DNA from: Promethearchaeota archaeon Loki_b31
GTDB lineage: Archaea; Asgardarchaeota; Lokiarchaeia; Sigyniarchaeales; SOKP01
DNA: 64,000 bases
Assembly: GCA_005222975.1 (NCBI GenBank)
Contig: NJBI01000011.1
Coordinates: forward strand, 17,810-81,809
Reading direction: 5' to 3'
Shown one piece after another: positions 13,201 through 29,222 of the stretch. The first letter of the stretch is position 1; every line of letters starts with the position of its first letter. The position numbers and the translations under genes are program-made. The notes under the pieces were generated by a model, which worked only from the letters and a program-made list of their open reading frames with translations, made no database searches and was not told the DNA's origin.

Positions 13201-13524
13201 ATATCCTCAATTTTTTAATATAATTCTTATTTAGTTTTAAAAATGTAAAAGTTGTTGATTCTCTTATTATTATATTTAGAATAATCTTTTCTTTAAATTG
13301 AATTATTTATAACCTAGTTATAATCTCCTTTAAAGTTATATGTACAGTCAATTTGGTTTTTTAAACGATGTTTTTAAACAAATAGAACAATTCTTAGATA
13401 TTAATATTAATACCAGAGATTATATTTAACAACGAATTAATTCTAATTTCTAAATAATATATGAGTTTATAGAATAAAAATATTGTCATTATGGAATGAG
13501 GATTAATGATCTGCTGCAAATCTC

Positions 13525-13556
13525 TTCCCTCACCTAAAGGAGGGGGTTTTTGTTTT
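13525..13556. other. GC-rich hairpin with T-tract upstream of purN (terminator-like, or IS200/IS605-type end remnant)
   Basis: TTCCCTCACC-TAAA-GGAGGGGG followed by TTTTTGTTTT in an otherwise very AT-rich spacer. Confidence 0.35.
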
Positions 13557-13601
13557 GCTTTAATGATAAACTTTTTTTAAAAAAGAAAATTAGAACGAAC
13601 T

Positions 13602-14237
13602 ATGTCAAAAGTAAAAATAGGTGCGATAGCCTCTGGTTCTGGGAGTAATTTAGAAGCAATAATTAAAGCATGCGAGGAAGGCATTTTGAAACATAAGGCG
13701 GGCGTAAAAGTACTTATTTGTAACAAAACTGGAGCATTTTGCATGGAACGAGCGAAAAACCATAACATACCATATGAATTAATTGAATCTAATAAGTTTC
13801 TTCATCTCCCCAGAGAAGAGTTCGATAAAAAGATGATAGCTGTACTAAAAAAATACGATTGTGAATTAGTTGTTTTAGTCGGCTATATGAGATTAGTAAG
13901 CCAAAGTTTTATTGATGCTTTCAATGGGAATGTTATGAATATACATCCTGCCCTTTTGCCTTCCTTCAAAGGTATGCACGCTCACAAAGATGTTTTAGAA
14001 TATGGTGTAAAGGTTTCTGGTACTACAGTTCATTTTGTGGATCCTCAATCGGATCATGGACCAATCATCATCCAAAAATGCGTTCCTGTGTACGATACCG
14101 ACACAGAAAAAACTTTAGGACCAAGAGTTTTAGAATGGGAGCACAAAATCTTTCCTAAAGCGATAGAATTATATTGCGATAAACGGTTGCATGTTGATGG
14201 AAGAATTGTAAGAATCGATGGTGATGTTGTCTTATAA
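13602..14237 (+). CDS. purN: Phosphoribosylglycinamide formyltransferase
   Basis: SGSGSN, GYMR, NIHPALLPSFKG, GTTVHFV, DHGPII. Confidence 0.96.
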   Translation: MSKVKIGAIASGSGSNLEAIIKACEEGILKHKAGVKVLICNKTGAFCMERAKNHNIPYELIESNKFLHLPREEFDKKMIAVLKKYDCELVVLVGYMRLVSQSFIDAFNGNVMNIHPALLPSFKGMHAHKDVLEYGVKVSGTTVHFVDPQSDHGPIIIQKCVPVYDTDTEKTLGPRVLEWEHKIFPKAIELYCDKRLHVDGRIVRIDGDVVL

Positions 14238-14449: not shown

Positions 14450-16639
14450 ATGCCTCGTCGTAAGGAAATTTCTGAGATTCTAAATATGATGGAAAAGACT
14501 CAGAATATTAGGAATATTGGGTTTGTGGGCCATATAGACCATGGTAAAACAACGCTAAGCGATTCTCTTTTGAGTGAAGCGGGTTTACTTTCACCCGATC
14601 TAGCAGGTGAAGCACGTGCCTTAGATTATTTAGAAGAAGAACAAAGACGTGGAATTACCATGAAATCTACTAATATTTCATTATACTATGAAAAATCCCT
14701 TAAAGACCACGACCCTTTTCTAATAAATCTTGTTGATACACCAGGCCACTTAGATTTTAGTGGCAAAGTAACTCGTGCTTTAAGGTTAATAGATGGAGTC
14801 GTTGTAGTTGTCGATGCTGTTGAGGAAATAATAACTCAATCTGAAACGGTTATTAAACAAGCTCTACAGGAAGGTGTGAAACCAGTACTTTATATTAATA
14901 AAGTAGATCGCCTCATCCGAGAGTTAAAGCTAACAGATGAAAAAATAAGAAAAAAATATACAAGGATTATTAAAGATTTTAATACGCTCATTAAAAGGTA
15001 CGCAGATAAACCCTTCAAAAAAGAGTGGCAAGTATCTCCTGACATTGGAAATGTTGCATTCGGCTCAGCGCTCCACAAATGGGGTTTTACATTAAGTATT
15101 TTAGAAAATAACGAGTTAAAGTTTTCGGATATTAGATCGCGGTATCAAAAAGAAACATACACTAAAGAAACCTATGCTGATTTAGCTGTTTATTTTCCAA
15201 TACACAACGCAATACTAGAAATGGTTGTCGATCACCTCCCTAATCCTATTGAAGCTCAGAAATACAGAATAGGTAAGATTTGGTGTGGAGATTTGACATC
15301 TGAAGTTGGAAAATCTATGACTAATTGCGATCCAAATGGACCTTTAATAATATGTTTGAGTAAAGTACAAGCAGATAAGCACAGTTTGGTCGCAACTGGA
15401 AGAATATTTTCTGGAAATTGTTTCAATAAAGAGGAAGTATTTTTATTAAGAGAAAATAATTTCGATACAATTCGAAAAACCGCAATTTTCATGGGTCAAA
15501 GAAGAGAGCAAGTTGAAGAAATCCCTGTTGGAAACATCGTTGCTATAGAAGGGTTAAAAAAAGTAAAAAGCGGCGAGACTTTAATTAATAAGAATTATAT
15601 TGATAAAATGGTTCCATTTGAAAATGTAAAATATGTTTCTACTCCCGTCGTAACGGTATCAATCGAACCGGAATATTTAAGAGATTTAGATAAAATGAAA
15701 GAGCTCATCGAAAACATACTAATCGAAGATCCCAATTTGTTATTTGAAATAAACGAGGAAAACGGCGAGTTCCTACTCTCAGGTATGGGACCTTTACATC
15801 TTGAAATCACCGCAAATGAAATTGAAAAACGAGGTGTTGAGATTTCAACATCAGAACCAAGGGCGGTCTTTAAAGAATCTTGCAAATATGGTTCTTCTAC
15901 TATAGCTGCAGAATCAACAAACCATCAAAGTTCGCTAAAAATTAGAATAGAACTATTAAACGATAAAACAAGCAGGTTCTTCCGGACTCATGATTTTAAG
16001 TCTATAAAACCAGTAGCAAAATTGAAAGAATTGTTAGAAGAATTTACTGATTTAACAACGGATGAAATCCAAGACTTTTGGACATATTTCGATAATAATA
16101 ACGTTTTAATTTATAATTTAAAAGATGATTTAAACCAATTCTTGAAAGATACAAATTTAGAAATTATTGATAAAATTCTATTAAATGGTCCACTATGCGG
16201 CGAAAAATTAACAGGTCTAAAAGTTATAATTGAAGAACTCGTCGTAAATAAGCTTGACGAAGAAAATGCGTTTACAGAATTATCGGCAATGTTTTACGAT
16301 GCCATTAAAAAAGCTTTAAACGAATCTGGACTTATCCTACTTGAACCTATATACTATACAATTATTCAATTACCCCCAGATTACATAAAAAATACGCTTT
16401 CTTTGCTTTCAAAATATTCTGCAAAAATAAAAAATGTCAATCAAGAAAAGGATTATCAAGCAATCATAGAAGTGCTCTTGCCAGTAAGAAATTCTATTAA
16501 ATTTGCTGAAGCTATTCGTTCTAGCACTTCAGGAAAAGCGTTCTGGCAAAATGAGTTTTACGCTTACATGGAAGTCCCTAATCATGAAGCCAAAAGATTA
16601 ATTAGTGATTTAAGATTTCTTAAAGGGCTTTCTTGGTAG
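14450..16639 (+). CDS. Elongation factor 2 paralogue (aEF-2p-like) lacking the diphthamide motif
   Basis: GHIDHGKTT, RGITM, DTPGH, NKVD, GMGPLHL, GPLCGE; no HRG motif in domain IV. Confidence 0.88.
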   Translation: MPRRKEISEILNMMEKTQNIRNIGFVGHIDHGKTTLSDSLLSEAGLLSPDLAGEARALDYLEEEQRRGITMKSTNISLYYEKSLKDHDPFLINLVDTPGHLDFSGKVTRALRLIDGVVVVVDAVEEIITQSETVIKQALQEGVKPVLYINKVDRLIRELKLTDEKIRKKYTRIIKDFNTLIKRYADKPFKKEWQVSPDIGNVAFGSALHKWGFTLSILENNELKFSDIRSRYQKETYTKETYADLAVYFPIHNAILEMVVDHLPNPIEAQKYRIGKIWCGDLTSEVGKSMTNCDPNGPLIICLSKVQADKHSLVATGRIFSGNCFNKEEVFLLRENNFDTIRKTAIFMGQRREQVEEIPVGNIVAIEGLKKVKSGETLINKNYIDKMVPFENVKYVSTPVVTVSIEPEYLRDLDKMKELIENILIEDPNLLFEINEENGEFLLSGMGPLHLEITANEIEKRGVEISTSEPRAVFKESCKYGSSTIAAESTNHQSSLKIRIELLNDKTSRFFRTHDFKSIKPVAKLKELLEEFTDLTTDEIQDFWTYFDNNNVLIYNLKDDLNQFLKDTNLEIIDKILLNGPLCGEKLTGLKVIIEELVVNKLDEENAFTELSAMFYDAIKKALNESGLILLEPIYYTIIQLPPDYIKNTLSLLSKYSAKIKNVNQEKDYQAIIEVLLPVRNSIKFAEAIRSSTSGKAFWQNEFYAYMEVPNHEAKRLISDLRFLKGLSW

Positions 16640-16653
16640 AGATAATGATTAAA

Positions 16654-16724
16654 TGCGCCTGCCGGGAATTGAACCCGGGACGCTGACTTGGGAAGCCAGC
16701 ATATTACCACTATACTACAAGCGC
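16654..16724 (-). tRNA. tRNA-Gly(CCC), intronless
   Basis: GCGCTTG/CAGGCGC acceptor stem, CTGGC-TT CCC AA-GTCAG anticodon arm, CCGGG-TTCAATT-CCCGG T arm. Confidence 0.96.
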
Positions 16725-16823
16725 AAAAATATAGAAAATTAATAATAATAAATGAGATTTTATAAATAAATTTTTTTACAAGTTGTGGTTTATTAATAAT
16801 TAAATTTCAAAATAGGTAGTACC

Positions 16824-17498
16824 ATGAATATTGAGAATTTAATTTTTCAAAAAAATATTACGATTAACAGCAACGATTCACTACTCATAATTGATATGCA
16901 GTATGATTTTATGCCAGGGGGAGCTTTACCTGTCGAAGAAGGCGATCAGATTATAGATGACATTAATTTAGTCGCTGAAATTTTTAAGGATAACAATGGG
17001 ATAGTTGTATTAACACAAGATTGGCATCCAAAAAATCATAAGTCATTTGCAAGTAGCTATCCTGGGAAAAACCCTAGAGATGAGTTTCAATCCGAAGGAA
17101 TTGGTCCAATTATTTGGCCAGATCATTGCGTTCAAGGCACACAAGGCGCAAAATTTCACGAAAAATTAAAAACTGATTTAACTAATGTTATTATTCGTAA
17201 GGGCTATAATATCGATGTAGATAGTTATTCTGGATTTATTGAAAACGATAAAAAATCAGAAACAGGTTTGGCTGGACTATTGAAATCATTGAATATTAAA
17301 AGAATCTTTATTTGTGGATTAGTGTTAGACTATTGTTGCTATTTTACTGCGATTGATGGTATCGATTTTGGTTTTGAGGTTTACTTTTTAGTAAATTTAA
17401 CTAAAGGCATAGATTTGCCCCCAGGAAACATCTCTAGCTCTTTAGAGAATATGAGAAATAAAGGAATTAAATTCGTAGCAAAGGAGAGTTTTGTGTAA
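16824..17498 (+). CDS. pncA: Nicotinamidase/pyrazinamidase
   Basis: IDMQYDF, QDWHP, WPDHCVQGT, KG, DSYSGF, DYC. Confidence 0.93.
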   Translation: MNIENLIFQKNITINSNDSLLIIDMQYDFMPGGALPVEEGDQIIDDINLVAEIFKDNNGIVVLTQDWHPKNHKSFASSYPGKNPRDEFQSEGIGPIIWPDHCVQGTQGAKFHEKLKTDLTNVIIRKGYNIDVDSYSGFIENDKKSETGLAGLLKSLNIKRIFICGLVLDYCCYFTAIDGIDFGFEVYFLVNLTKGIDLPPGNISSSLENMRNKGIKFVAKESFV

Positions 17499-17509
17499 GG
17501 GTTAAAATC

Positions 17510-18007
17510 GTGAAGTCTACGACGAATGCTAAACCTAAGAGTTTTCCATACAGCAAAATTTTAGTAGCTTGTAGTGTAAATACCGCAAGAAGTCCAATGA
17601 CAGAAGGATTTTTAAAAGATTTCTTTGCTCGTAATAATATGAAAGGAGAAGTGTATTCTGGTGGAATTTCTTCGAACGCTAGAGATGGAATGCTTATTTC
17701 TCTTGACGCGAAATTTGTAATGAAAGAATTTTTTATAGACTTACCAGAAGATTCTGTCTCGATTGATTTAAAAAAACGACTTGAATTAATTCAGTGGGCA
17801 GATTTAATCCTCACGCTAACTGATAAACATAAACAAGAAATTATTAAATTTATTGACTCAGATAATAAAGAGATTTGCACTCTAAGAGAATTTGCGGGAG
17901 AAAATGGGGATATTGAAGACCCTTCAATGAAAGGACTTGAAGGTTTTCGCAAAGCTCGGGACGAGATAAAAAGATGTTTGGATAAAGGGTTAAGAAAATA
18001 TTCGTGA
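17510..18007 (+). CDS. Low-molecular-weight protein phosphatase / ArsC family
   Basis: P-loop CSVNTARS (CX5R), ADLILT, DIEDP. Confidence 0.85.
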   Translation: MKSTTNAKPKSFPYSKILVACSVNTARSPMTEGFLKDFFARNNMKGEVYSGGISSNARDGMLISLDAKFVMKEFFIDLPEDSVSIDLKKRLELIQWADLILTLTDKHKQEIIKFIDSDNKEICTLREFAGENGDIEDPSMKGLEGFRKARDEIKRCLDKGLRKYS

Positions 18008-18013
18008 AATTTT

Positions 18014-18907
18014 CTAACTTGTTTTGATAAAATTAAGTAAGTAATCGCTCAATATACTTTCAATATTCTTTATTCCTCGAAATCCTGGAAAATCGTTAAG
18101 ATCTATGAAATAATACTTATTGCTATTTACGGGTTGAACCAAGTCGAACCCAAATATTTTTAAATTCATTTCTTTTGAAAGGATTTGGGCTAGATTATGA
18201 ATTTCTTTAGTTATTTTAAATTCTTTTCTTTTGATTGTGTCAACATCGATATTATCGGGCTTTTTTTTCAAAAATATATAAATCGGATTTTCTCTTATAA
18301 TCCCAAACGTTTTGTCTCCTATTACGTAAATCTTTCTTTCAAAACCATCACACTCAATAAATTTTTGAATGTAAATGTCGTAGTATAATAAATGTTTATA
18401 TCTTTCGCAAAAAATATCTATTTCTTTTATCTTTCGAACTAGAAAATTGAATCTATTGTATTTATCGTGTTGATAATGACTTTTAAGTACAATAGGTAAT
18501 TTCGGAGTTGCCCATTTCTTAAATTTTTGAACATCTGTAATATTATTATTCCAAGAATTTGGTAGAGCGAAATGCTTCCTGATTTGAGGATTATTTTTAA
18601 AGACACTTCTAAGAGCGTAATCAAGAGCGATCTTGTTTTTGCATGTTAAAACAACATCAACACTATGGAATGTCGGAATTTTATTTATTTTAGCAAAATG
18701 AAGTAGATCGATAGAACAATCGTTTCTTATTTTAGCAATTATTAAATCTGCTTCTTTAATCGCTTTAGGCATTCTGGAAAGGTTGAAAAATTTCTTTGTA
18801 GGATCGTGAAAGTATAAATTGACATCTGGAATAGTTTTGAGCCTGTTTATAACGCTTTTTATGATTTCGTGATCTTCTCTTGCTGAAAAAACGACCTTTT
18901 TGACCAT
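18014..18907 (-). CDS. ITPK1-like ATP-grasp inositol phosphate kinase (A)
   Basis: IQKFI, KIYVIGD, FGFDL, IDLNDFPGF (DxN plus FPG as in ITPK1, not the RimK ExN). Confidence 0.75.
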   Translation of the reverse strand: MVKKVVFSAREDHEIIKSVINRLKTIPDVNLYFHDPTKKFFNLSRMPKAIKEADLIIAKIRNDCSIDLLHFAKINKIPTFHSVDVVLTCKNKIALDYALRSVFKNNPQIRKHFALPNSWNNNITDVQKFKKWATPKLPIVLKSHYQHDKYNRFNFLVRKIKEIDIFCERYKHLLYYDIYIQKFIECDGFERKIYVIGDKTFGIIRENPIYIFLKKKPDNIDVDTIKRKEFKITKEIHNLAQILSKEMNLKIFGFDLVQPVNSNKYYFIDLNDFPGFRGIKNIESILSDYLLNFIKTS

Positions 18908-19030
18908 AATTAATTCTTAAAAAAGCGGGACACATTCTTAAATATTCCTTAATCCTTATTTTTTTTAAAGTTTATATTAATTAAAATTTAATTAATTATT
19001 AATAATTACATCTTTAAATTTAACCAGAAT

Positions 19031-20320
19031 GTGGAAATTCTATTGAGAGAAAAAAAATTTAGTAAATTTTTAAGGAGACAAGTATTACTGATTGGATTAC
19101 TTTATTGCGGTGATTATATTTTCTTCTTTTTTGAGCAAAACTACTTTAACACTTATATTGATCACGTTCTTAATCTTCCAGAAATCTATATATCACTAAT
19201 GGTTTCTTTATCTGCTACTATGGGATTGATTATGAATTTTGTATGGGGTGTTTTTAGTGATAATACGCGATCAAAATTCGGAAGGAGGCGTCCATATTTA
19301 CTTTTAGGAATGATAGCGGGAACTGCTATGATTTTCTATGGATTATCACCTAGTTTTTATATTTGCCTATTCATAGATGTCATCATTATAGGAATCTTTT
19401 CGAACGCGTATTTAGTTGCCGAAAGGTCTCTTATCCCAGACACAGTTGAAATTGAGAAGAGAGGTCGAGCAAATGGCATAATTAATGCTGTTAGCTATAT
19501 AGGATTATTAGTTGGCGTCGCTTTTTTGTTGGTTGGTAATGAACTATTTGGAGTCCAGGACCCTATCGATGGTGGAACGATCATTACTCAAGAAGGGCAT
19601 TTTATCTTACTTTCTGTAGGGGGTATAATCTTTGGATTAGTCGGATTAATTGGTTTCATTTTTATTAAAGAAAAACCAATATCTGAGCTTCCTGAAAAGA
19701 AACCATTTTTGAAAGAATTAAAAAATTCCTTTAATTTAAGAGAGTTTAAAGCTCAAAAAGAATTCTATAAAATTACACTGGCATTTATGGTTTTTCAGTC
19801 GGGAATCTCATCTGTGATGCCATTTCTGTTTGTCTTTATCTTTGATTTAGGCTTATCGACTATAGAATTGTTAACGGTAATTGCTGTAGCTTTTCCTATA
19901 TTATACGGTGTGACCTTATACCTTGGTAAAGTGGCTGATAAATTTGGTCGAAAAAGGTTTATTCCGTTATCCATTATATTGACTAGTATAGGATACCTAA
20001 TCGTTCCATTCACAGTGAGCGGTAATAATGTAAATTTCGTTCTATTTATAGTGATATTTCCATTTATCATGGTAGGATTGCTAGCCTTAGTAACTCCTCT
20101 AAATACTTGGACACAAGATTTATTACCTGAAGATAGACGAGGGACATTTAATGGTATATTCAATATAGTTTTTACCGTATCACAAGTAATTGGATCAATT
20201 GCGGGTGGGATAGTAGCAACCTTATTCGGAGTCCAATGGATTTTTCTATTAGGTCCTGTCTTTTTTATTGCTTCTATTCCACTTTTCCTAAAAGTAGAAG
20301 AGACTCTAAAGAAAGACTAG
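19031..20320 (+). CDS. MFS transporter (glycoside/sugar type)
   Basis: 12 TM segments; SDNTRSKFGRRRPY and ADKFGRKR motifs. Confidence 0.88.
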   Translation: MEILLREKKFSKFLRRQVLLIGLLYCGDYIFFFFEQNYFNTYIDHVLNLPEIYISLMVSLSATMGLIMNFVWGVFSDNTRSKFGRRRPYLLLGMIAGTAMIFYGLSPSFYICLFIDVIIIGIFSNAYLVAERSLIPDTVEIEKRGRANGIINAVSYIGLLVGVAFLLVGNELFGVQDPIDGGTIITQEGHFILLSVGGIIFGLVGLIGFIFIKEKPISELPEKKPFLKELKNSFNLREFKAQKEFYKITLAFMVFQSGISSVMPFLFVFIFDLGLSTIELLTVIAVAFPILYGVTLYLGKVADKFGRKRFIPLSIILTSIGYLIVPFTVSGNNVNFVLFIVIFPFIMVGLLALVTPLNTWTQDLLPEDRRGTFNGIFNIVFTVSQVIGSIAGGIVATLFGVQWIFLLGPVFFIASIPLFLKVEETLKKD

Positions 20321-20404
20321 ATAATTTTTTCTATATTTTTTTATTTTTTTTTTGTGGTATGATTATAAGTTCTAATAACTTTTCTCTATATCGATAGTTT
20401 CAAA

Positions 20405-21532
20405 ATGGTTAAATACTATAAACAAATAATAGAAGATAACATGGCGAATAAAATCAATATCGCTATTATTGGAATTGGAGATTGCGCAAGCGCCCTAATT
20501 CAAGGAGTAGAAAACTATAAAAAGAATCCCGATAAGATAATTGGATTACTACCAGAAATCAAACAATATAGCGTTAACAACATAAACTTTGTACTAGGGA
20601 TCGATGTTAATTCAAATAAGGTTGGAAAGGACTTAAGTGAAGCTATTTTCATTGAACCAAATTGCAATATCAAATTATTTGAACCCAAATTTTTAGATGC
20701 TCCTGTAATAAAAGGACCTGTGAAGGATGGATTAAATAGCAATATAAAAAAGATAATTCCCTTAGATAATAATCAACTTGATTCGGACGTTTCTAAAGAG
20801 ATAAAAAAGAAAAATGTTGATGTTGCAGTAATACTACTTCCTACTGGAAGCCATAACGCAGTGAAGTTTTATGCTATGGCTGCTCTCAATGCTGGCGCCT
20901 GTGTTATTAATGGAATGCCGTCATATGTAGCTAAGGACCCTGAAATCGTTAAGAAAGCCGAAGATTTATCCCTCTCATTAATAGGTGACGATGTAAAATC
21001 TCAGATAGGCGCTACTATTATTCATCGCTCATTAGCAAATCTCTTTCCTATGAGAGGAGCAATTCTCGATCGCACAATTCAATTAGATTGGGGAGGATCG
21101 TCAGATTTTTGTAATTTATTAACTCCAAGAGCTAATGGAAAGCTAGTCTATGAAGAAGGAAAACGACAAGCTAAAACTGAAGCAGTTGTAGCAAATCTTC
21201 AAAATAAAGACACTATAGAATGTCAAATCTCAGCTGTAGACTATATTCCTTTCTTAAAGAATCAAAAGGAAGCGTATATGAGATTAGAAGGTCGAATTTT
21301 TGGAGGTGCTCCAGTTAGGGTTGATATTACGATGTTTGTGGAAGATGGAAATAATTCTGCGGGAGTAATAGCAGATTGTATTAGAGTTTCTAAAATTGCT
21401 AAAGATCGCAAAATTGGAGGTGTTCTACACTCAGCTTGCTCTTTCTTTAATAAACATCCTCCAGAACAATTAGAGGATTACGTAGCAAAAATTCGCCTTG
21501 TAGAGTTTATAGAAAATAAAAGGGAAAGGTAA
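20405..21532 (+). CDS. ino1: myo-inositol-1-phosphate synthase (probable start ATG 20441)
   Basis: IGIGDCASAL, LPTGS, GDDVKSQIGATIIH, DYIPFL, NSAGV, KHPP. Confidence 0.9.
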   Translation: MVKYYKQIIEDNMANKINIAIIGIGDCASALIQGVENYKKNPDKIIGLLPEIKQYSVNNINFVLGIDVNSNKVGKDLSEAIFIEPNCNIKLFEPKFLDAPVIKGPVKDGLNSNIKKIIPLDNNQLDSDVSKEIKKKNVDVAVILLPTGSHNAVKFYAMAALNAGACVINGMPSYVAKDPEIVKKAEDLSLSLIGDDVKSQIGATIIHRSLANLFPMRGAILDRTIQLDWGGSSDFCNLLTPRANGKLVYEEGKRQAKTEAVVANLQNKDTIECQISAVDYIPFLKNQKEAYMRLEGRIFGGAPVRVDITMFVEDGNNSAGVIADCIRVSKIAKDRKIGGVLHSACSFFNKHPPEQLEDYVAKIRLVEFIENKRER

Positions 21533-21562
21533 ACTCAAGGAACTTTTTCTTCACTTGCATAT

Positions 21563-22474
21563 TTAACTTTTTGCTCTAATAAGCGCACTTCGGTAAGTTT
21601 CTCTCATATTTATCAAGTTATAAATGTTATCTGAAACCAGACTCACTCCTTCAGGTATACTCCTAAAACTTGGGAAGTCGTTTACATCTACAATGTAAGG
21701 ACCTTTTTCAGTCATAATGTAATCTAATCCAAAAATAGACATTCCAAACTTTCGTCCTAATCTTATAATCCTTCTTTTAAATCGCTCGTCTACAGGAACT
21801 CTAATATGGATTAGTTCTAACGGAGACAAATCTTTATTTTTTTGTAAGCGATTATGCGAAGTAATTGAAACAACCCAATTACCTATAACATATACTTTAT
21901 AGATAATATCGTGCTCACCTAAATATTCTTGTAAAAATAACTCACTCTCGTTATAGCTTTGTATCAATTCAACTAATTCTTTCGAGTTTTTAGCAATTCC
22001 AATAATTCTATCGTTTTTAGGTAGCTCTGGTATGTTATGGGAGTTCAACTTAACTATAATTTTAGCACCCTCCTGACATGCTTTCCAAGCGTCTTGTTTG
22101 GTATAATAAGTGAGTGGTATTTGGATTTTCTTACATCTATTCTTGATTAATTCAAAAGTGTTTGTTCTACTCTCACAAATATGGACAGAATTTAACGAAT
22201 TTAGAATTGGGATATTTGGAGAAACGTTTCTAATAACTTTGTAGATATTTTCGTTAGATTTTTGGGTCGTAAGTTTAACAATCAAAAAGGAAATAGGGTA
22301 TTTTTTCAATCTTTTTTCTAAATATTTTTCATTAAAATTTTCAGGTCCATTTTTCATTAAATTGACTAAATAAATATTATAATTCTTTAATAGGAATTTC
22401 TTGATATGTTCTAAAACCTCAAGATCCCTATTACAAATGGCTCCTACATATTTCCTTTTTATATTATTCGCCAT
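21563..22474 (-). CDS. ITPK1-like ATP-grasp inositol phosphate kinase (B)
   Basis: LQEYL, YKVYVIG, IFGLDY, IVDVNDFPSF. Confidence 0.78.
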   Translation of the reverse strand: MANNIKRKYVGAICNRDLEVLEHIKKFLLKNYNIYLVNLMKNGPENFNEKYLEKRLKKYPISFLIVKLTTQKSNENIYKVIRNVSPNIPILNSLNSVHICESRTNTFELIKNRCKKIQIPLTYYTKQDAWKACQEGAKIIVKLNSHNIPELPKNDRIIGIAKNSKELVELIQSYNESELFLQEYLGEHDIIYKVYVIGNWVVSITSHNRLQKNKDLSPLELIHIRVPVDERFKRRIIRLGRKFGMSIFGLDYIMTEKGPYIVDVNDFPSFRSIPEGVSLVSDNIYNLINMRETYRSALIRAKS

Positions 22475-22702
22475 TTAAAAAACCCTATTAATTTGATTTT
22501 TTAAAAGCAAACCATAGTATATAAATGTATTGTTTGAGCGTATTTTCAGCCATTAAGTTTTTTTTTTTTTTCATTAATGAAGAATTAGATTATAATAATA
22601 AATTCAAGATAATTCAATATTATATAGAAGTATGAATTTTATTAGTTTGTTAGTAAAATATCTTTTTAGAATTTAAAGTAATTGAATTAAAAGGTTAATT
22701 TT

Positions 22703-23521
22703 TTGATAAAAATTGGTATTATTATCGATAAGTACCATTTGCAGAAAAAAACCTCGCAACTTATTGAATATTTGTCCACAGTAGCAAAAATTTCTCTATA
22801 TCTTGAAGAAGATTATCTAATAGATTATTCTAACTTTGATTTTAATGAGGATATCTTTTTTGTCAAGGCTAAAGGTGATTTAATATTAAATCTAATAAAG
22901 TTGATTGAAAGAGAAACAGATATTCCTGTAATTAATTCATCAAGAGGAATATGGTTAGCTATTAATAGATTTTTAAATAGTACTTTTCTAAGACAATCAG
23001 GAATACGAGTCCCTAATTTTACTTTAAACGCTAAAGGATTACTTCCGCCTTTTACTGATTATATTATAAAAAATATCATAGATCAAAAGAACTATGCTTT
23101 TAGCCCCCAAATTCAAAGAATTAACGGATACTTAAATATTTCCGATCAAAGGGCATTAGACGAAGTAAACGGAGAGAAAGCAAAATATACCTATCTCTAT
23201 TACCAAGAATTTATTAAAAGTAAATGGGAATATAAAGTATATTGCATTGGTGATGACCTGTTTTATTACAAACAACTACCAATATTAGTAAATCCCGATA
23301 AAATGAAAACTAGGCGAAAAATTGATAAAATTCCTGAGCTAAAAGAAATTACCTTAAAAGCTTTAAAAACGATAGGATTAAAAATAAGTTCTTTAGATTT
23401 TCTAAGATCAAAGGAAGGTGAATTCTTCCTAACAGACATAAATTCGTCGCCCAATTTTAATTACATAAAAAATGGTCCAAAAATTATTGGAGATTATTTA
23501 ATTAAACAAGCTAAAAATTAA
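22703..23521 (+). CDS. ITPK1-like ATP-grasp protein (C)
   Basis: YQEFI, YKVYCIGD, SLDF, LTDINSSPNF; TTG start. Confidence 0.68.
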   Translation: MIKIGIIIDKYHLQKKTSQLIEYLSTVAKISLYLEEDYLIDYSNFDFNEDIFFVKAKGDLILNLIKLIERETDIPVINSSRGIWLAINRFLNSTFLRQSGIRVPNFTLNAKGLLPPFTDYIIKNIIDQKNYAFSPQIQRINGYLNISDQRALDEVNGEKAKYTYLYYQEFIKSKWEYKVYCIGDDLFYYKQLPILVNPDKMKTRRKIDKIPELKEITLKALKTIGLKISSLDFLRSKEGEFFLTDINSSPNFNYIKNGPKIIGDYLIKQAKN

Positions 23522-23535
23522 GTTTAACAAATAAA

Positions 23536-24327
23536 ATGAAAATTGGAATATTATCAAAAAGAACAAGAAACTTCACTGGTAAAATCAAGCTTTACTTAGA
23601 AAAAAAAGGACACGCAGTGAATATTTATACTGCTAGCAATCTATGCATTAATGATGCTCTCTTAGTAAACGATTTTTACATATTAAAATCTAAGCATCTA
23701 TTTTATCTATATGCGGGTTATTTTTTAGAAGCGAATAATATTCCCGTTATCCCAAGTACAGATATTAGTTATCGACATAAAAATCGAATTGAATCTTACT
23801 TTTCTATTAAAAATACTAATCTCTTACTTCCAAATGTTTTTATGGGAGCTATTGATACTTTAAAAGGTCAATTAAAAACATCTGATTTACCACTTATTTT
23901 AAAACCACTTTTTGGCTCTGGAAGTAAGGGAGTGAAAATTATTAATTCTTTTCACGATTTTAATGATATTGACGAAAAGAATCTTTATTTAGAAAAGTTT
24001 ATTGAAGGCACTCACTACTTAGTATACTTTATAGGCAATGAGATCTGTATCTGTGAAAAAAAACCTTTAGCAAACGAACACGACAAGGTAAAATTAATTC
24101 ATTCTGATAGTGAGATGGAAGAATATATAATGAAATGGAAGAATAAATATAATCTTTTATTTGGCCACCTAGATCTTATAAGAGATAACAACACTGATAA
24201 ATTATACGTTGTAGATGCGGGAACCTTTCCTGAATTTTCAAATTGGAAACATAATACTGATCCCGTTTCGAAAGTATGTAATTTGATTCTGGATAGATAT
24301 CAACAAATAAAAAATAAAACGGAGTAA
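23536..24327 (+). CDS. ATP-grasp protein (D), degenerate ITPK1/RimK-like
   Basis: LILKPLFGSGSKGV, LEKFI, HLDL, VVDAGTFPEF. Confidence 0.65.
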   Translation: MKIGILSKRTRNFTGKIKLYLEKKGHAVNIYTASNLCINDALLVNDFYILKSKHLFYLYAGYFLEANNIPVIPSTDISYRHKNRIESYFSIKNTNLLLPNVFMGAIDTLKGQLKTSDLPLILKPLFGSGSKGVKIINSFHDFNDIDEKNLYLEKFIEGTHYLVYFIGNEICICEKKPLANEHDKVKLIHSDSEMEEYIMKWKNKYNLLFGHLDLIRDNNTDKLYVVDAGTFPEFSNWKHNTDPVSKVCNLILDRYQQIKNKTE

Positions 24328-24364
24328 AAGTTTAAAAAAGAGGTATAGAATTTTTACATTAAAA

Positions 24365-25375
24365 ATGAATTCGGCCAACAATTCTCCTGGTTCAGACGAA
24401 TATGACTATGCGAAATCTTTAATATTCAAAAAACAAAAGGTTAAATTATATGAGATTAAACACTTTCTTTTTGATTTTGGAGGAGTATTAATAGAAAAGA
24501 CATTTGTATTAAATAATTTATTTGCTTTTATTGAGCATGATCTAAATATTAAAATTCCATCAAAAGAAATTGATCCATATCTCAAAAAATTAAGACGGAG
24601 GTTATCGTCTGGAAGGATTTCTGCTAGAACATTTTTAGAATCGATATTTGAGATGTATTACATCCCTTTCCAAAAAAAAAATGAAGCGTTACCGCCAAAA
24701 AAAGTTAATATCAAGTATTACTTGGAGCTTTGGTTTAATCTTTATACTCAAGTTACACACATATCGTCTGATATGGCAGAAATTGTTGAGCGTCTACATT
24801 TAGCGGGGTATACAGTAAGTCTTTTGTCAAATACTTATGACATTCATGCGAAATCAAATGAATTAAGGGGTTTTTACGATAATTTTGATAACGTGTTTTT
24901 ATCGAACGAAATTGGATTAATTAAACCCGATATGGATAAATACATATATGTATTAAAAAAATTAGGTTCCAAACCAAAAAGATGTATTTTTATTGACGAT
25001 AAAATAAGTAATCTTATTCCTGCGCATGAATTAGGAATAATCGTTATAAAATTCGAATCTTTCGAAAAGTTTAAACAGCAATTAAACGATATAGGCATAA
25101 AAGAAATAAGCCCAAATTTAAGGAAAGAAATCAAGAAAAAGTATGAATCGTATAAAAAAAAGAAAAAGGAATACAACAAAATAAAAAGGGAATACAAGAA
25201 GGCTAAAAATAAGTATCTAAAAAAAAGATATAGAAAGAAAAAATCGTTAAAGAGAAGGCTTGAATTCCAAAAAAAGCGAGCAGAATACCAAAAGAAAAAG
25301 ATTGAATATCAAAATGAAAGGGATAAGAAAAAGGAAGAACTGATATCTAAAGTTAAATTAAATTTTTATAGGTAA
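24365..25375 (+). CDS. HAD-superfamily phosphatase with Lys/Arg-rich C-terminal coiled coil
   Basis: FDFGGVL, LSNT, KP, FIDD motifs; ~80-aa polybasic tail. Confidence 0.85.
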   Translation: MNSANNSPGSDEYDYAKSLIFKKQKVKLYEIKHFLFDFGGVLIEKTFVLNNLFAFIEHDLNIKIPSKEIDPYLKKLRRRLSSGRISARTFLESIFEMYYIPFQKKNEALPPKKVNIKYYLELWFNLYTQVTHISSDMAEIVERLHLAGYTVSLLSNTYDIHAKSNELRGFYDNFDNVFLSNEIGLIKPDMDKYIYVLKKLGSKPKRCIFIDDKISNLIPAHELGIIVIKFESFEKFKQQLNDIGIKEISPNLRKEIKKKYESYKKKKKEYNKIKREYKKAKNKYLKKRYRKKKSLKRRLEFQKKRAEYQKKKIEYQNERDKKKEELISKVKLNFYR

Positions 25376-25382
25376 TTAACCA

Positions 25383-26513
25383 TTATTTATTTTCTTCTGT
25401 TTCGTTATCGCGTTCTTTATTGTAAGCTTCTACCTTTTCCATAACGGATTCTGCGGGTGTTGCTGCGGGAATTGGCATTTTTTCGTAAATTTCAATAAAC
25501 TTTACATTCTCTATATCTTCGCTCATATGAGTCTGAAGGTCCATGGCAAGACCAAATTTTAAGTAAGTGAGATTTTGGAACAGAAACATTTTAGGGATTG
25601 TAATTTCTAGAGTTTTATCCTCCGCATGATTTATAATAAATTCAGCAGCACTCTCTTTAGGAATCCCCTTTGTAATCATGAAATATTCAATTTTTTCGTT
25701 AAAACCTTCGATTTTATCGATAATCTCTAGGTTGTAGTCGATTGATTGACCTGCCAAAGGATGGTTGTAGTCGATAATAACTTTTCCTTGCATAATATTA
25801 GAAACTACACCTCTTTGACCTTTTTTATTGGTAAAATCTTGACCATATTCGGGGTTCTTGCCTTCATTTAATTTTCTAAATTTAGCGATGCCAATTCTTT
25901 CGATTTTTTGAGGGTCTCTTTTACCAAATGCTTTAGTAGGGGGTATTCTTACAGATTTTTTTTCAAAGTAATTCATTTCTTTAATTGTATCAGTTAATCC
26001 CTCGTTTACAAATCCTGGCTTTCCAGCAATAATGAATTCTGGGGTGTAATAACCTTGTTTACCCTTTTCTTCTTCGTAAATCCCAGCTTTTCTTGCGTCC
26101 TCCTCGGTAGAAACTCTAAAAACTTTACCTTTTTGGGTTCTTGCTGTCATTTTTAAGAGTACAAAATCACCTTCGTCAACTTTTTTTCCTTGTAATTTTG
26201 CCTTCTTTTCTTCTAATTTCTTAGCTTCTTCTTGAATTCTTTTTTCTTCCTCTGCTTCTGCTTCCACTTCTGCGGAGATTTTATCGTTTTCTACTGTACT
26301 ACCATCTGAGGTAGCCTTATTTGAGTACCCTAACAAATCTTTTGCGTTACTTACGAATTTTTCAGCAGTAGCCTTTCCAATACCTTTAAGTTGTGTTAAC
26401 TCATCCACATCCGCATTTGCTAATTTCTCAACTGTATCAATCCCAGCTTCTATTAGAACTTCCTGTTTTTTGCCAACACCTTTCACATCTTCTAAATTCA
26501 TTCCTAAAACCAT
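25383..26513 (-). CDS. Long-type FKBP/SlyD PPIase with N-terminal helix-hairpin-helix domain
   Basis: VKGVG..AGIDTVEKLA..LKGIGKATA HhH; IPPTKAFGKRD and DYNHPLAG FKBP motifs. Confidence 0.88.
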   Translation of the reverse strand: MVLGMNLEDVKGVGKKQEVLIEAGIDTVEKLANADVDELTQLKGIGKATAEKFVSNAKDLLGYSNKATSDGSTVENDKISAEVEAEAEEEKRIQEEAKKLEEKKAKLQGKKVDEGDFVLLKMTARTQKGKVFRVSTEEDARKAGIYEEEKGKQGYYTPEFIIAGKPGFVNEGLTDTIKEMNYFEKKSVRIPPTKAFGKRDPQKIERIGIAKFRKLNEGKNPEYGQDFTNKKGQRGVVSNIMQGKVIIDYNHPLAGQSIDYNLEIIDKIEGFNEKIEYFMITKGIPKESAAEFIINHAEDKTLEITIPKMFLFQNLTYLKFGLAMDLQTHMSEDIENVKFIEIYEKMPIPAATPAESVMEKVEAYNKERDNETEENK

Positions 26514-26583
26514 TAAATAATATTAGTTAAGTTATAACCAATTAGATTTTAAAATTTTTCATTACTTATTACTTTTTCTAAAT

Positions 26584-26706
26584 TTAAGATACTGGCTCAT
26601 ACAAAATTCCTAATTCGTCAGCATAATTCTTAACATCGTGCATTTCTTCTATTGAAGGTCTTCTGTTTATTTCTTTATATTTATAAACTAAATATTCGGG
26701 GTGATA
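26584..26706 (-). pseudogene. Orphan second copy of the last 40 codons of the radical-SAM gene at 28110-29222
   Basis: Translates to YHPEYLVYKYKEINRRPSIEEMHDVKNYADELGILYEPVS*, 23/40 identical without gaps to FHPEY...WRPVS*. Confidence 0.9.
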
Positions 26707-26867
26707 AGAGATCAGAAAAAATTAAGTTTTTCTTTTTATAGAACCATTAGTATTAATATTCCTTATTTAAACAATAATTTTTGTTTAAATACATGTGTTC
26801 TAATAATATAGTATAGTGTATATACATATTTTTAGCCAAGAGGGCAGAAAGTAGAGATTTTGATATC

Positions 26868-28139
26868 TTGAAGGAAACAGGAGTGTATTTGATTAATGGG
26901 ACAATTAAAGAAAAAATTGCTGATGCTGCAGCTCTTTTCAAAGCAATAAGGAAACAGATTTCATTGTATCCAAATCCTTGTTATTGTATCAGAAAAGCCA
27001 TTGAAAATGCTGAGTTCTTCAGTTTGTTGCTTGGTTTAAAACCTTATTATTTTACATATAAAAGTCAAAGAAGTCAAAGAGGTAAGCAATTAGGTTTAGA
27101 CCTTTTAATAAGAATTGAAACAATTCTGATGAAATCATTTGATTATTGGAGACAGAAAGAATCCGACTCAAAATTAATTGACAAGATTACTTTCATAAGG
27201 GATAATATTAGAAAGATCATTGAAAGTTATAAAGCTTCTAACAAACTTAAGTTATATGCTCATGGTTCAAATGGTGTTTTAGAACAACACCCTGATCTAA
27301 AACTAGATTATTTTAAAAATATTGACTCTCTAGAAAAAGCGTATTGGCTTGGTTGTTTGTTTGCTGAAGCTTATATTACTATTAAGAAACTTAAAAGTGG
27401 TAAAAAATATTATCAATTAGGAGTTGGATGTGTACAAGATGATTTCATTTTATTAGAAAGGTTTGCAGATGCTCTTGGCTTAGATATTGTAAATAATGAA
27501 CCCCGTAAAGAAAAATATATTACTTCTAAAGGAGAAGTGCATCTATTTAGACGAATTACATTAATTAATAATTATTTTTGTAAAAATCTCATATCTCATG
27601 GATTTATTGTGGGAAAAAAAAAATCAAAAAACATAAGATTACCAAAATTTAAAATTCGAGAACTATTACTAGTGTTTCTACTTGGTTATTATGATGGAGA
27701 TGGAACAATGGGGAGATCTAGAATAACTTCTAGTAGTGAGAAGTTTCTTGAAGATATTTTAAATTCGCCATTCTTAAATATACACATTTCTAATTCCAAT
27801 TCCATCCAATATGATCCAGTTAAAAAATCATACATAATCACAGGAGATAGAATAAGTATAGGAGCAGACTTAATGAGAGAAATAGTTAAAAATTATAAGA
27901 ATAGCCTACCAAGAAAGCGAGCTTATTGGGAGAATTGGGTTGATAACCGTACAAATAAACCTTCTCCAAAAATGGATTTATTAAGAGAAAAACTACCTGA
28001 AGAGGAACTAATAAACCTTATGAAAAAATTTACTCTAAAACAAATTGCATATATGTACGGAGTTGGGTATAGAACTTTAATGGATTATAAAGGCAAATTA
28101 AATATATATTTAAGAGACAGGTCTCCAGAAGATTCCTAA
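26868..28139 (+). mobile_element. Free-standing two-motif LAGLIDADG homing endonuclease with C-terminal HTH
   Basis: KAYWLGCLFAEAY and FLLGYYDGDG motifs, FTLKQIAYMYGVGYRTL HTH; flanked by duplicated host-gene 3' ends. Confidence 0.82.
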
Positions 28140-29222
28140 TTTATCCGCATAATTTCTAACTTCTTGAATTTCCTGTGAATTAGGTCTACGATTTATTTCA
28201 GGATAGTGAAAAGCTTTGTACTCTGGATGAAACTGCTGCATTAGGTTCATAACCGCTTTTGGAAGTTCTTTAGCTACATAATCTAATATTGGCTTAGAAC
28301 AGCATTCCACATGATTAGGCATGATTAAGTGTCGAATTATTATTTCCCCACTTCCTAAATCGTGAATTCTTTTAAGATTACGAGTTATTACATCGTAATA
28401 ACCTTTTATTCCAGAGTATTTTTCTCCACATTCGTTGTTGCCGTACTTAAAATCAGGTAACCAAAAATCTATAAAATCTATGATGAGAGACAACGATTCG
28501 TTAGTAAGATAAAAGTTTGAATTCCAGAGTTGCGTAATGTTTGATGTTTGATGTTGAAAACTACCTACAATAGTATGGAGGTTTGGTATAGGATCACCTC
28601 CTACATAATTGATATTTATAGCACCTTTCCCAACTAGTTTGTCTGCAAGAGCGGCTAATTGTAAAACATCAACTTTTTGAGCAATATCTTCAATATTTCT
28701 CCGACCTTTCCAAGCTTGAGAAATATCGTAATTTTGACAAAAGACGCAACCAAAATTACAACCTTGGAAAAAGATAGTACCGCTTGGTATCAGCGGAGAT
28801 TCTTCGCCCATATGTAAAAAAGCAGAGGAAACAAACGAATCTTTCGATATCAGACAAAATCCTTTTTCACCATCTATACGGTTAACCTTACATTGCCTTT
28901 CGCAAAAAATGCAACTCTCAAGATATTTATTTGCTAATTCTTCAGCTAGAGTAATATAACTTTTAGAGGCTATGCTACGATTTTTAAGATCTTCAGTTGG
29001 ATTTTTTAACAACTCATTAAATTCTACAGATTTTTTCCTTAACAAATCCTCTAAATGTTCTATAGTATCTTTTGTATCGTATTCACATTTTATACTTTTT
29101 GCGATAATATACCTTGCAACTTCCTTATTGTCAATGATCCCTCGATATCTAGGAAATCTTTTGAGCAGTTCTTCGTTTTTCCACACCGAAATTGAGTCTG
29201 GTCGAAGAATTCTAAAAACCAT
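28110..29222 (-). CDS. Radical SAM protein, PflX family
   Basis: CIFCERQCKVNR..GFC, HMGEE, SGTIFF, CNFGCVFCQN, PDFKYG, IIRHLIMP. Confidence 0.9.
   Translation of the reverse strand: MVFRILRPDSISVWKNEELLKRFPRYRGIIDNKEVARYIIAKSIKCEYDTKDTIEHLEDLLRKKSVEFNELLKNPTEDLKNRSIASKSYITLAEELANKYLESCIFCERQCKVNRIDGEKGFCLISKDSFVSSAFLHMGEESPLIPSGTIFFQGCNFGCVFCQNYDISQAWKGRRNIEDIAQKVDVLQLAALADKLVGKGAININYVGGDPIPNLHTIVGSFQHQTSNITQLWNSNFYLTNESLSLIIDFIDFWLPDFKYGNNECGEKYSGIKGYYDVITRNLKRIHDLGSGEIIIRHLIMPNHVECCSKPILDYVAKELPKAVMNLMQQFHPEYKAFHYPEINRRPNSQEIQEVRNYADKLGIFWRPVS

Follow-up and report, generated by a model that had tools for sequence, protein, structure and literature searches.

The window analysed here is a stretch of 64,000 nucleotides (contig NJBI01000011.1, positions 17,810 to 81,809) from the genome of Promethearchaeota archaeon Loki_b31, and forms part of contig C18 of this 3.5 Mb metagenome-assembled genome (MAG), which comprises 99 contigs and is 92% complete. 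The window has a GC content of about 31% and encodes an archaeal elongation factor, aEF-2, recognized by its NCBIfam profile (Table 1). Seven contiguous open reading frames (ORFs) extend across positions 18014-25375 and encode four ATP-grasp proteins (GraspA, GraspB, GraspC and GraspD), an MFS transporter, a myo-inositol-3-phosphate synthase (MIPS) and a HAD phosphatase. An initial annotation, made from the sequence alone, had proposed this run of seven genes, and both the ORF coordinates and the Pfam and NCBIfam family assignments bear it out. The genes do not constitute one operon: both strands are used, in at least four transcription units, with GraspD starting 14 bp beyond the end of GraspC. 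A scan of positions 16500-27000 against Rfam found no riboswitch and only a tRNA, which lies outside the cluster. MIPS converts glucose-6-phosphate to inositol-3-phosphate (Ins3P), and inositol polyphosphates were long regarded as a hallmark of eukaryotes.

Table 1. Genes of the inositol phosphate cluster and its neighbours in the window.
Feature	Position	Strand	Properties
GraspA: ITPK1-type ATP-grasp kinase	18014-18907	-	297 aa; PF05770 46 bits
MFS transporter, sugar/glycoside-symporter-like	19031-20320	+	429 aa; MFS_1 6.9e-58
MIPS/ino1, myo-inositol-3-phosphate synthase	20405-21532	+	375 aa; PF01658 74.1 bits
GraspB: ITPK1-type ATP-grasp kinase	21563-22474	-	303 aa; PF05770 31 bits
GraspC: compact ATP-grasp, ITPK-type catalytic residues, LysX/RimK-like fold and profile	22703-23521	+	272 aa
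GraspD: altered ATP-grasp paralogue, sister of GraspC	23536-24327	+	263 aa
HAD-IA phosphatase (YihX/sEH-N-like), polybasic C-terminal tail	24365-25375	+	336 aa; PF00702, TIGR01509
LMW-PTP family phosphatase (YwlE-like), neighbour	17510-18007	+	PF01451 6.7e-17
aEF-2	14450-16639		NCBIfam profile
tRNA, between the aEF-2 and nicotinamidase genes	16654-16724	-	Rfam 65 bits
Fusion of helix-hairpin-helix (HHH_5) and FKBP26-type PPIase domains	25383-26513	-	

By family profile and nearest structures, GraspA and GraspB are clear relatives of ITPK1, and are the only two among the four ATP-grasp proteins. Both exceed the gathering cut-off of 23 bits of the Pfam family PF05770 (Ins134_P3_kin; scores in Table 1), and their top matches in the Protein Data Bank (PDB) are ITPK1 chains, those of GraspB being human ITPK1 (2q7d/2qb5, 1.7e-4). 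A profile of 28 GraspA orthologues matches nine ITPK1/ITPK4 sequences in the PDB (9e-14 to 2e-6), all ranking above RimK (3.5e-5); when used to search the genome, it retrieves GraspB (3.5e-18) and GraspC (1e-13), both ahead of a RimK ligase (2.6e-10). Three sites were taken as diagnostic of ITPK1: the metal-binding D...D-x-N (human D281, D295 and N297), the substrate-contacting lysine of K-V-Y/F-V-V-G (human K199) and a following arginine (human R212); ITPK1 chains in the PDB show K-V-Y/F-V-V-G and D-I-N. The translations of GraspA (RKIYVIG, IDLNDFPG), GraspB (YKVYVIG, VDVNDFPS) and GraspC (YKVYCIG, TDINSSPN) contain every motif that the initial annotation had quoted for them. K192, R205, D255, D269 and N271 are invariant in GraspA orthologues, K192 and R205 aligning with the K and R of KVYVVG...KR in ZmITPK1 by profile alignment, and R156, K193, D251, D263 and N265 are invariant in GraspB orthologues. 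The arginine corresponding to human R212 can be aligned for GraspA (R205) only, its equivalent in GraspB, GraspC and GraspD being uncertain.

Comparison with eukaryotic ITPK1 (PF05770; 2q7d/2qb5 of human, 1z2n of Entamoeba, 7tn5 of maize, 8oxe of potato) reveals a common ATP-grasp fold, the same metal-binding and lysine motifs in GraspA, GraspB and GraspC, the following arginine in GraspA, and C-terminal halves of GraspA and GraspB that align with E-values down to 9e-14. The archaeal proteins differ in being shorter (263-303 aa versus 320-345 aa), in resembling ITPK1 mostly in the C-terminal half, in occurring as four paralogues clustered with a synthase, and, for GraspC and GraspD, in an overall shape nearer to LysX and RimK. 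The suggestion that all four proteins are ITPK1-like therefore holds for GraspA and GraspB, which pass PF05770 and find ITPK1 structures first, and fails for GraspC and GraspD, which do neither.

GraspC and GraspD are accordingly the proteins for which a different chemistry must be weighed, namely that the two of them, or perhaps GraspB, GraspC and GraspD together, act like LysX and RimK as carboxylate-amine ligases. Their substrate would then be a protein, peptide or cofactor, or they would assemble a conjugate or solute linked to inositol, and the linkage to MIPS would signify a product other than inositol polyphosphates. The best Pfam match of GraspC is RimK (21.9 bits), with no PF05770 match at E<=0.01; among its orthologues, 14 of 22 match RimK and 6 of 22 match PF05770 (best E 1.1e-3), and NCBI names them 'RimK family alpha-L-glutamate ligase'. 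GraspD scores 20.3 bits on PF05770, short of the cut-off, and its orthologues match the generic ATP-grasp_3 family (19 of 20) more often than PF05770 (2 of 20). In searches of the PDB, the top match of the GraspC profile and of the GraspD profile alike is the ligase ArgX (3vpb; about 1e-5). The AF2 models of the two proteins are confident (pLDDT 90.8 for GraspC and 92.7 for GraspD): VIA Z-scores for GraspC are 23.5 with LysX, 22.4 with RimK, 20.9 with PPIP5K2 and 20.1 with ITPK1, and the best fold match of GraspD is ArgX 3vpb (TM 0.81). The structure prediction proposed in the initial annotation, as run on GraspC and GraspD, thus gave sound models whose nearest neighbours are LysX, ArgX and RimK rather than ITPK1 and PPIP5K2, which score about 3 Z lower. 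Because Foldseek and VIA-align place LysX/ArgX, RimK, PPIP5K2 and ITPK1 within so narrow a range, the fold alone leaves kinase versus ligase undecided.

Catalytic residues and family thresholds distinguish the window proteins from the ligases more sharply. RimK, LysX and ArgX (TIGR00768, TIGR02144; 3vpb, 3vpd, 5k2m, 7qys) share with them their size and a compact three-domain ATP-grasp architecture, and GraspD has, after its ATP lysine, a glycine-rich loop of the ligase type (KP..GSGSKG). However, on the rimK_fam profile (TIGR00768, curated cut-off 143.4 bits) GraspA scores 42.4, GraspC 47.1 and GraspD 26.6 bits, and GraspB gives no match. The one true RimK-family ligase encoded in the genome (C46:2805-3674; 238 bits on the same profile) has arginine at the first diagnostic site (DIRILVLG) and E-x-N at the metal site (LEVNSIPG); alignments show E-x-N in the RimK and ArgX structures of the PDB as well. 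Where the ligases have this combination, GraspA, GraspB and GraspC have lysine and D-x-N, and GraspD has leucine and D-A-G; none of the four window proteins qualifies as a RimK-family member. The contrast that the initial annotation drew between D-x-N here and E-x-N in RimK/LysX is therefore upheld for GraspA, GraspB and GraspC by the organism's own RimK. In GraspC, the ITPK-type lysine and metal site (K178, D232, D245, N247) are invariant among orthologues. There is also no gene for a carrier protein or target of a ligase near the cluster. Taking into account the gene contents described below, we consider the ligase explanation unlikely.

GraspD departs from both families. Its motifs read YLVYFIG and VDAGTFPE, with leucine at the lysine site and D213 and D227-x-G229 in place of D...D-x-N, and both altered states are conserved in its orthologues; K123, E153 and the glycine-rich loop are retained. 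With 54 representatives among 1.84 billion at E<=1e-10, the family is a small one. Distant GraspD-like proteins of 24-32% identity, among them one whose name derives from a Pseudomonadota MAG, retain the signature V-D-P-G-x-F-P and likewise lack the lysine, indicating that GraspD is altered rather than decaying. Three GraspD-like proteins of 375-412 aa (the Pseudomonadota-named P0140, P0142 and P0136) are extended at the C-terminus by some 150 aa containing paired CxxC motifs, a region that Lokiarchaeial GraspD does not have. A quick maximum-likelihood tree joins GraspC and GraspD as sisters (SH-aLRT 91) with GraspD on a very long branch, and, having a single outgroup, is indicative only; in a profile search, GraspA is the sole significant relative of GraspD in the genome. 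In a broad sequence search with the GraspC profile, all matches were orthologues of at least 56% identity, and no remote relatives came into view.

A closely similar locus has been described. In Lokiarchaeum GC14_75, four ITPK1 homologues, LcIKA to LcIKD, were reported to flank inositol-3-phosphate synthase (IPS) genes, and LcIKC partly restored inositol hexakisphosphate (InsP6) in plc1-null yeast (Desfougeres 2019, PNAS, PMC6900528); the same report proposed that ITPK1 was originally an inositol-monophosphate kinase. Later papers repeat the Lokiarchaeum ITPK1 point. The statement in the initial annotation that ITPK1-like genes had been reported in Lokiarchaeum was correct. The resemblance extends to four ATP-grasp ITPK1 homologues beside synthase genes in a Lokiarchaeon, to the proposed lipid-independent phosphorylation of Ins3P (PMC6900528), and to one residue: LcIKC has Arg156 where the human enzyme has His162 (PMC6900528), and Arg156 is invariant in GraspB, which is probably the orthologue of LcIKC on this sequence evidence. 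The loci differ in that Lokiarchaeum has two synthases whereas the Loki_b31 genome has one MIPS, and in that the report treats all four proteins as ITPK1 homologues whereas only GraspA and GraspB of the window reach the family threshold, GraspC being ITPK-like only at key residues and GraspD altered. No mention was found in its main text of the MFS transporter, the tailed HAD protein, a core of GraspB, MIPS, GraspC and GraspD, or a cassette outside Asgard archaea, all of which are described below.

The MIPS of the window exceeds the PF01658 cut-off of 27 bits and is the single match to that family in the genome; TIGR03450 matches its residues 17-369 (5e-90) below the cut-off of that equivalog, which is tuned to actinobacterial INO1. 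It is 73-91% identical to its orthologues within the family of the window's organism. Two IMPases and three CDP-alcohol transferases are encoded on other contigs (the transferases on C63, C74 and C87), and no CDP-alcohol transferase is encoded on this contig, in agreement with the claim that none lies nearby. No match to IPK, Ins_P5_2-kin or the PPIP5K N-domain was found in the 92%-complete genome, the searches for Ins_P5_2-kin and the PPIP5K N-domain being weak negatives, since they found no match in any control genome either. An output of InsP6 or pyrophosphorylated forms (PP-InsPs), which had been envisaged for the cluster, is consequently unsupported; as no 2-kinase can be recognised, the cautious assumption is that the end product is InsP5 or a less phosphorylated form.

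The same gene inventory raises the question of whether the kinases act on a head-group precursor for a membrane lipid or compatible solute, such as a specific InsP2 for a lipid of the archaetidylinositol-phosphate type, rather than build up a soluble signalling series to InsP5 or InsP6. The genome's only MIPS must supply the three CDP-alcohol transferases encoded elsewhere, and the missing IPK, IP5 2-kinase and PPIP5K fit a short series as well; but neither a CDP-alcohol transferase nor a cytidylyltransferase nor any other lipid gene is found in the cluster, on its contig or in the minimal cassette described below, a single head-group phosphorylation would not require as many as three or four paralogous kinases, and the Lokiarchaeum homologue fed InsP6 synthesis in yeast according to the published account (PMC6900528). 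We judge a head-group role to be quite unlikely.

Comparison of about 40 related loci indicates which of the genes belong together. Throughout the family of the window's organism the cluster is set in a fixed frame, with a nicotinamidase gene on one side and the HhH-FKBP and radical-SAM genes on the other. MIPS, GraspB, GraspC and GraspD are contiguous, with GraspA nearby, in five genera (g1, g12, g16, g17 and g19), and their linkage outlasts rearrangements, insertions, and the loss or gain of the MFS and HAD genes; GraspB adjoins MIPS in the loci compared, one of which has a 3.4 kb insert between the two. The examination of synteny across Asgard archaea that had been called for thus finds a cluster conserved in five genera of one family, and this contiguity, together with its recurrence on an unrelated high-GC contig (see below), shows that the clustering is not due to chance. 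GraspA is an older, separately placed paralogue. It can abut MIPS in g12, where there is no MFS gene, and it is the only paralogue found alone: g13 and g14 have only GraspA at the site and g18 only the MFS gene and GraspA, their MIPS being located elsewhere and an orthologue of GraspC being absent. Another family of the order has a pair of B-like and C-like genes that MIPS does not accompany.

Additional genes are associated with the cluster in some genomes. The slot between the MFS and MIPS genes holds variable cargo in relatives, none of which is present in the genome of the window: a 941-aa protein without a Pfam match together with a 337-aa Zn-dependent dehydrogenase in many close relatives (L016:4672-8556; L019, L020, L023, L028, L032), and in others unrelated proteins of about 810 aa, or GH2 and URO-D. 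The 941-aa protein and dehydrogenase pair and the other inserts were rejected as members of the system because they are variable and absent from the window genome. Genomes of g16 (L045:12865-18715; L046:4978-7196 and 12344-13630) encode two extra divergent MIPS-like paralogues, 33-39% identical to canonical MIPS, and the surroundings of the g16 cluster include genes for a DHDPS-family protein, a Zn-dependent alcohol dehydrogenase, an SDR, two copies of the MFS transporter and a CotH kinase. The HHH_5-FKBP gene (Table 1) is a constant neighbour of the cluster throughout the family, and in the sister family (L034, L035) it also adjoins the ITPK-like gene that occurs there singly. The end of the radical-SAM gene is overlapped by an ORF that weakly matches LAGLIDADG (window positions 26868-28139 (+) and 28110-29222 (-)).

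The smallest version of the cluster was found outside Asgard archaea. A metagenome scan with a divergent D-like protein (P0131) led to one high-GC locus, on contig Ga0210405_10008261 (L060), whose GC content of 61-65% indicates that it is not Lokiarchaeial; a metagenome scan with another query, A8, gave no match. A co-directional operon at L060:448-4037 consists of B-like, MIPS, C-like and D-like genes, the profile E-values being 1e-49 for the B-like protein (28 bits on PF05770), 2e-66 for the C-like and 6e-56 for the D-like, and the MIPS being 53% identical to that of the window. Genes for Mutator-family transposases flank the cassette (2-454 and 6707-7837 on L060), and the unit of GraspB, MIPS, GraspC and GraspD appears to move horizontally. 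GraspA, the MFS transporter, the HAD phosphatase and LMW-PTP are all absent from this minimal cassette; given the conservation of the other four genes in the Lokiarchaeial family and their recurrence here, the constant unit is B-MIPS-C-D, with GraspA, the MFS, HAD and LMW-PTP genes outside it. The cassette contains no LysW-like carrier, aminotransferase, oxidase, CDP-alcohol transferase, cytidylyltransferase or other lipid gene. This composition tells against both of the alternatives above: GraspC and GraspD always accompany an ITPK1-type kinase and MIPS, and where no enzyme is present to add a carboxylate or amine to inositol, phosphoryl transfer would be the only ATP-grasp reaction to fit the products of MIPS.

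Within Asgard archaea, the range of these kinases is narrow. Among 300 evenly sampled Asgard genomes, some of them incomplete, PF05770 matches 64 of the 68 genomes of the window's family and one of the seven genomes of its sister family, with no match in the other approximately 225 genomes sampled. The GraspA profile has the same distribution, and yields elsewhere only weak matches typical of generic ATP-grasp proteins. One Lokiarchaeial family and a single genome of its sister family is a restricted range for a gene often cited as an Asgard inheritance of eukaryotes.

The accessory genes are less constant. The MFS transporter matches MFS_2 (1.5e-17) and the GPH symporter profile (5e-11) in addition to MFS_1, and its best PDB match is the sucrose transporter SUC1 (2.3e-5); it thus resembles sugar and glycoside symporters and not organophosphate carriers of the UhpT/GlpT type. 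The gene is absent from the loci of g12, duplicated in g16, and adjoins variable carbohydrate genes in relatives. A role as an inositol phosphate exporter was rejected as unsupported, because the nearest relatives are sugar symporters and the gene is lost in g12. The HAD protein scores above the cut-offs of PF00702 (58.3 versus 26.4 bits) and TIGR01509 (45.3 versus 29.4 bits), has FDFGGV as motif I, and finds 2b0c and YihX as its best PDB matches (about 2e-9), the nearest structures being YihX and the sEH N-domain. Its C-terminal tail (roughly 25097-25375) comprises 87-92 aa, of which 31-44 are lysine or arginine, and a pattern of the type KKEYKKAKKEY is common to all 13 copies examined; binding of a polyanion such as an inositol polyphosphate (InsPn) is an attractive candidate role for the tail. 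The window and 13 other loci of its genus reach past GraspD, and 6 of these 14 lack the gene, which is doubled in one g16 genome (L054). The cluster had been interpreted as a complete system for writing, erasing and transporting inositol phosphates; with the MFS gene absent in g12, the HAD gene in 6 of 14 loci of the genus and both from the high-GC cassette, that interpretation cannot be sustained. Plant ITPK4 (7pup; PMC7614388) also joins an ITPK-family kinase to a HAD fold, an arrangement reminiscent of the HAD gene located behind the kinase genes of the cluster. The parallel is loose: ITPK4 has a fused HAD-like domain that is degenerate, lacks a cap and has no known function (PMC7614388), whereas the HAD protein of the window is separate, optional, apparently intact, YihX-like and equipped with a polybasic tail.

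The LMW-PTP gene ends 6 bp from GraspA. Its product has an intact C-X5-R motif (CSVNTARS) and the arginine phosphatase YwlE (4pic, 2e-15) as its best PDB match. In many relatives a gene for a BacA/UppP undecaprenyl-diphosphatase, missing in the window, lies between LMW-PTP and GraspA (e.g. L025:7742-8596), and LMW-PTP is absent from the genera that have GraspA only and from the high-GC cassette. It was rejected as a member of the cluster because of the intervening BacA gene and its absence from the minimal cassette, and is probably a bystander.

These observations suggest, with a probability of roughly 0.7, that the locus corresponds, in its Lokiarchaeial form, to the IPS/LcIK locus already published, and that it is a module which makes soluble inositol phosphates by a lipid-independent route. 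The family assignments of GraspA and GraspB, the adjacency of MIPS and the Lokiarchaeum precedent (PMC6900528) all support the linkage of MIPS with ITPK1-type kinases in a lipid-independent route from glucose-6-phosphate, as the initial annotation had it. Several points weigh on the other side. GraspC and GraspD fall below the PF05770 cut-off and are nearest in fold to LysX, ArgX and RimK, and GraspD is missing the metal-binding asparagine; the HAD and MFS genes are dispensable in close relatives; the sole MIPS must also feed inositol lipids, so its linkage is no proof of a dedicated soluble pathway. The sole published assay showed one Lokiarchaeum paralogue to give a weak rescue in a heterologous host, a yeast that supplies its own downstream kinases, and the coincidence of Arg156 in GraspB is the sole tie between GraspA-GraspD and the sequences of LcIKA-LcIKD.

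In such a module, MIPS makes Ins3P from glucose-6-phosphate, as is established for its family, and GraspB and GraspA would add phosphates to the ring at the expense of ATP, as their homology, conserved residues, linkage and the rescue of plc1-null yeast by LcIKC suggest. GraspC is most likely a third kinase with another positional or substrate preference, to judge from its metal-binding D...D-x-N, its lysine, its constant linkage and the chemistry available to the cassette. GraspD, the tandem duplicate of GraspC, has lost the metal-binding asparagine and the lysine while keeping nucleotide-binding elements; more speculatively, it would most likely serve as an altered or non-catalytic partner of GraspC. 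The functional core would be B-MIPS-C-D; the HAD protein, where present, probably dephosphorylates an inositol phosphate, as its adjacency hints, and the MFS protein is more likely to be a carrier of sugar or inositol than of inositol phosphates.

A more far-reaching reading treats B-MIPS-C-D as a self-sufficient mobile prokaryotic pathway that leads from glucose-6-phosphate to an InsP6-like or pyrophosphorylated inositol by ATP-grasp enzymes only, with GraspC and GraspD forming an undescribed heteromeric kinase (an intact subunit and a D-P-G subunit) that supplies the activity which IPK1 or PPIP5K provides in eukaryotes. We regard this as doubtful. If it were true, the existence of the cassette outside Asgard archaea would mean that transfer, and not vertical descent, could have brought ITPK1 to eukaryotes or to Lokiarchaeia.

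The core of the preferred interpretation, a Lokiarchaeial module for soluble inositol phosphates, was already published in 2019 for Lokiarchaeum, and the locus adds no new kind of system. What is new is the division between GraspA/GraspB and GraspC/GraspD, and the recognition that the constant unit consists of an ITPK1-type kinase, the synthase and a GraspC/GraspD pair that family criteria place outside ITPK1. GraspC, GraspD and the tailed HAD phosphatase are proteins of interest for biochemistry. Among the 300 Asgard genomes sampled this unit is limited to one family-level clade, yet it is present, flanked by transposases, in a high-GC organism. The ITPK1 homologues of Lokiarchaeum have been a published argument that a soluble pathway predates eukaryotes; the distribution of the kinases and the high-GC cassette matter for deciding whether eukaryotes can safely be said to have inherited ITPK1 from Asgard archaea.

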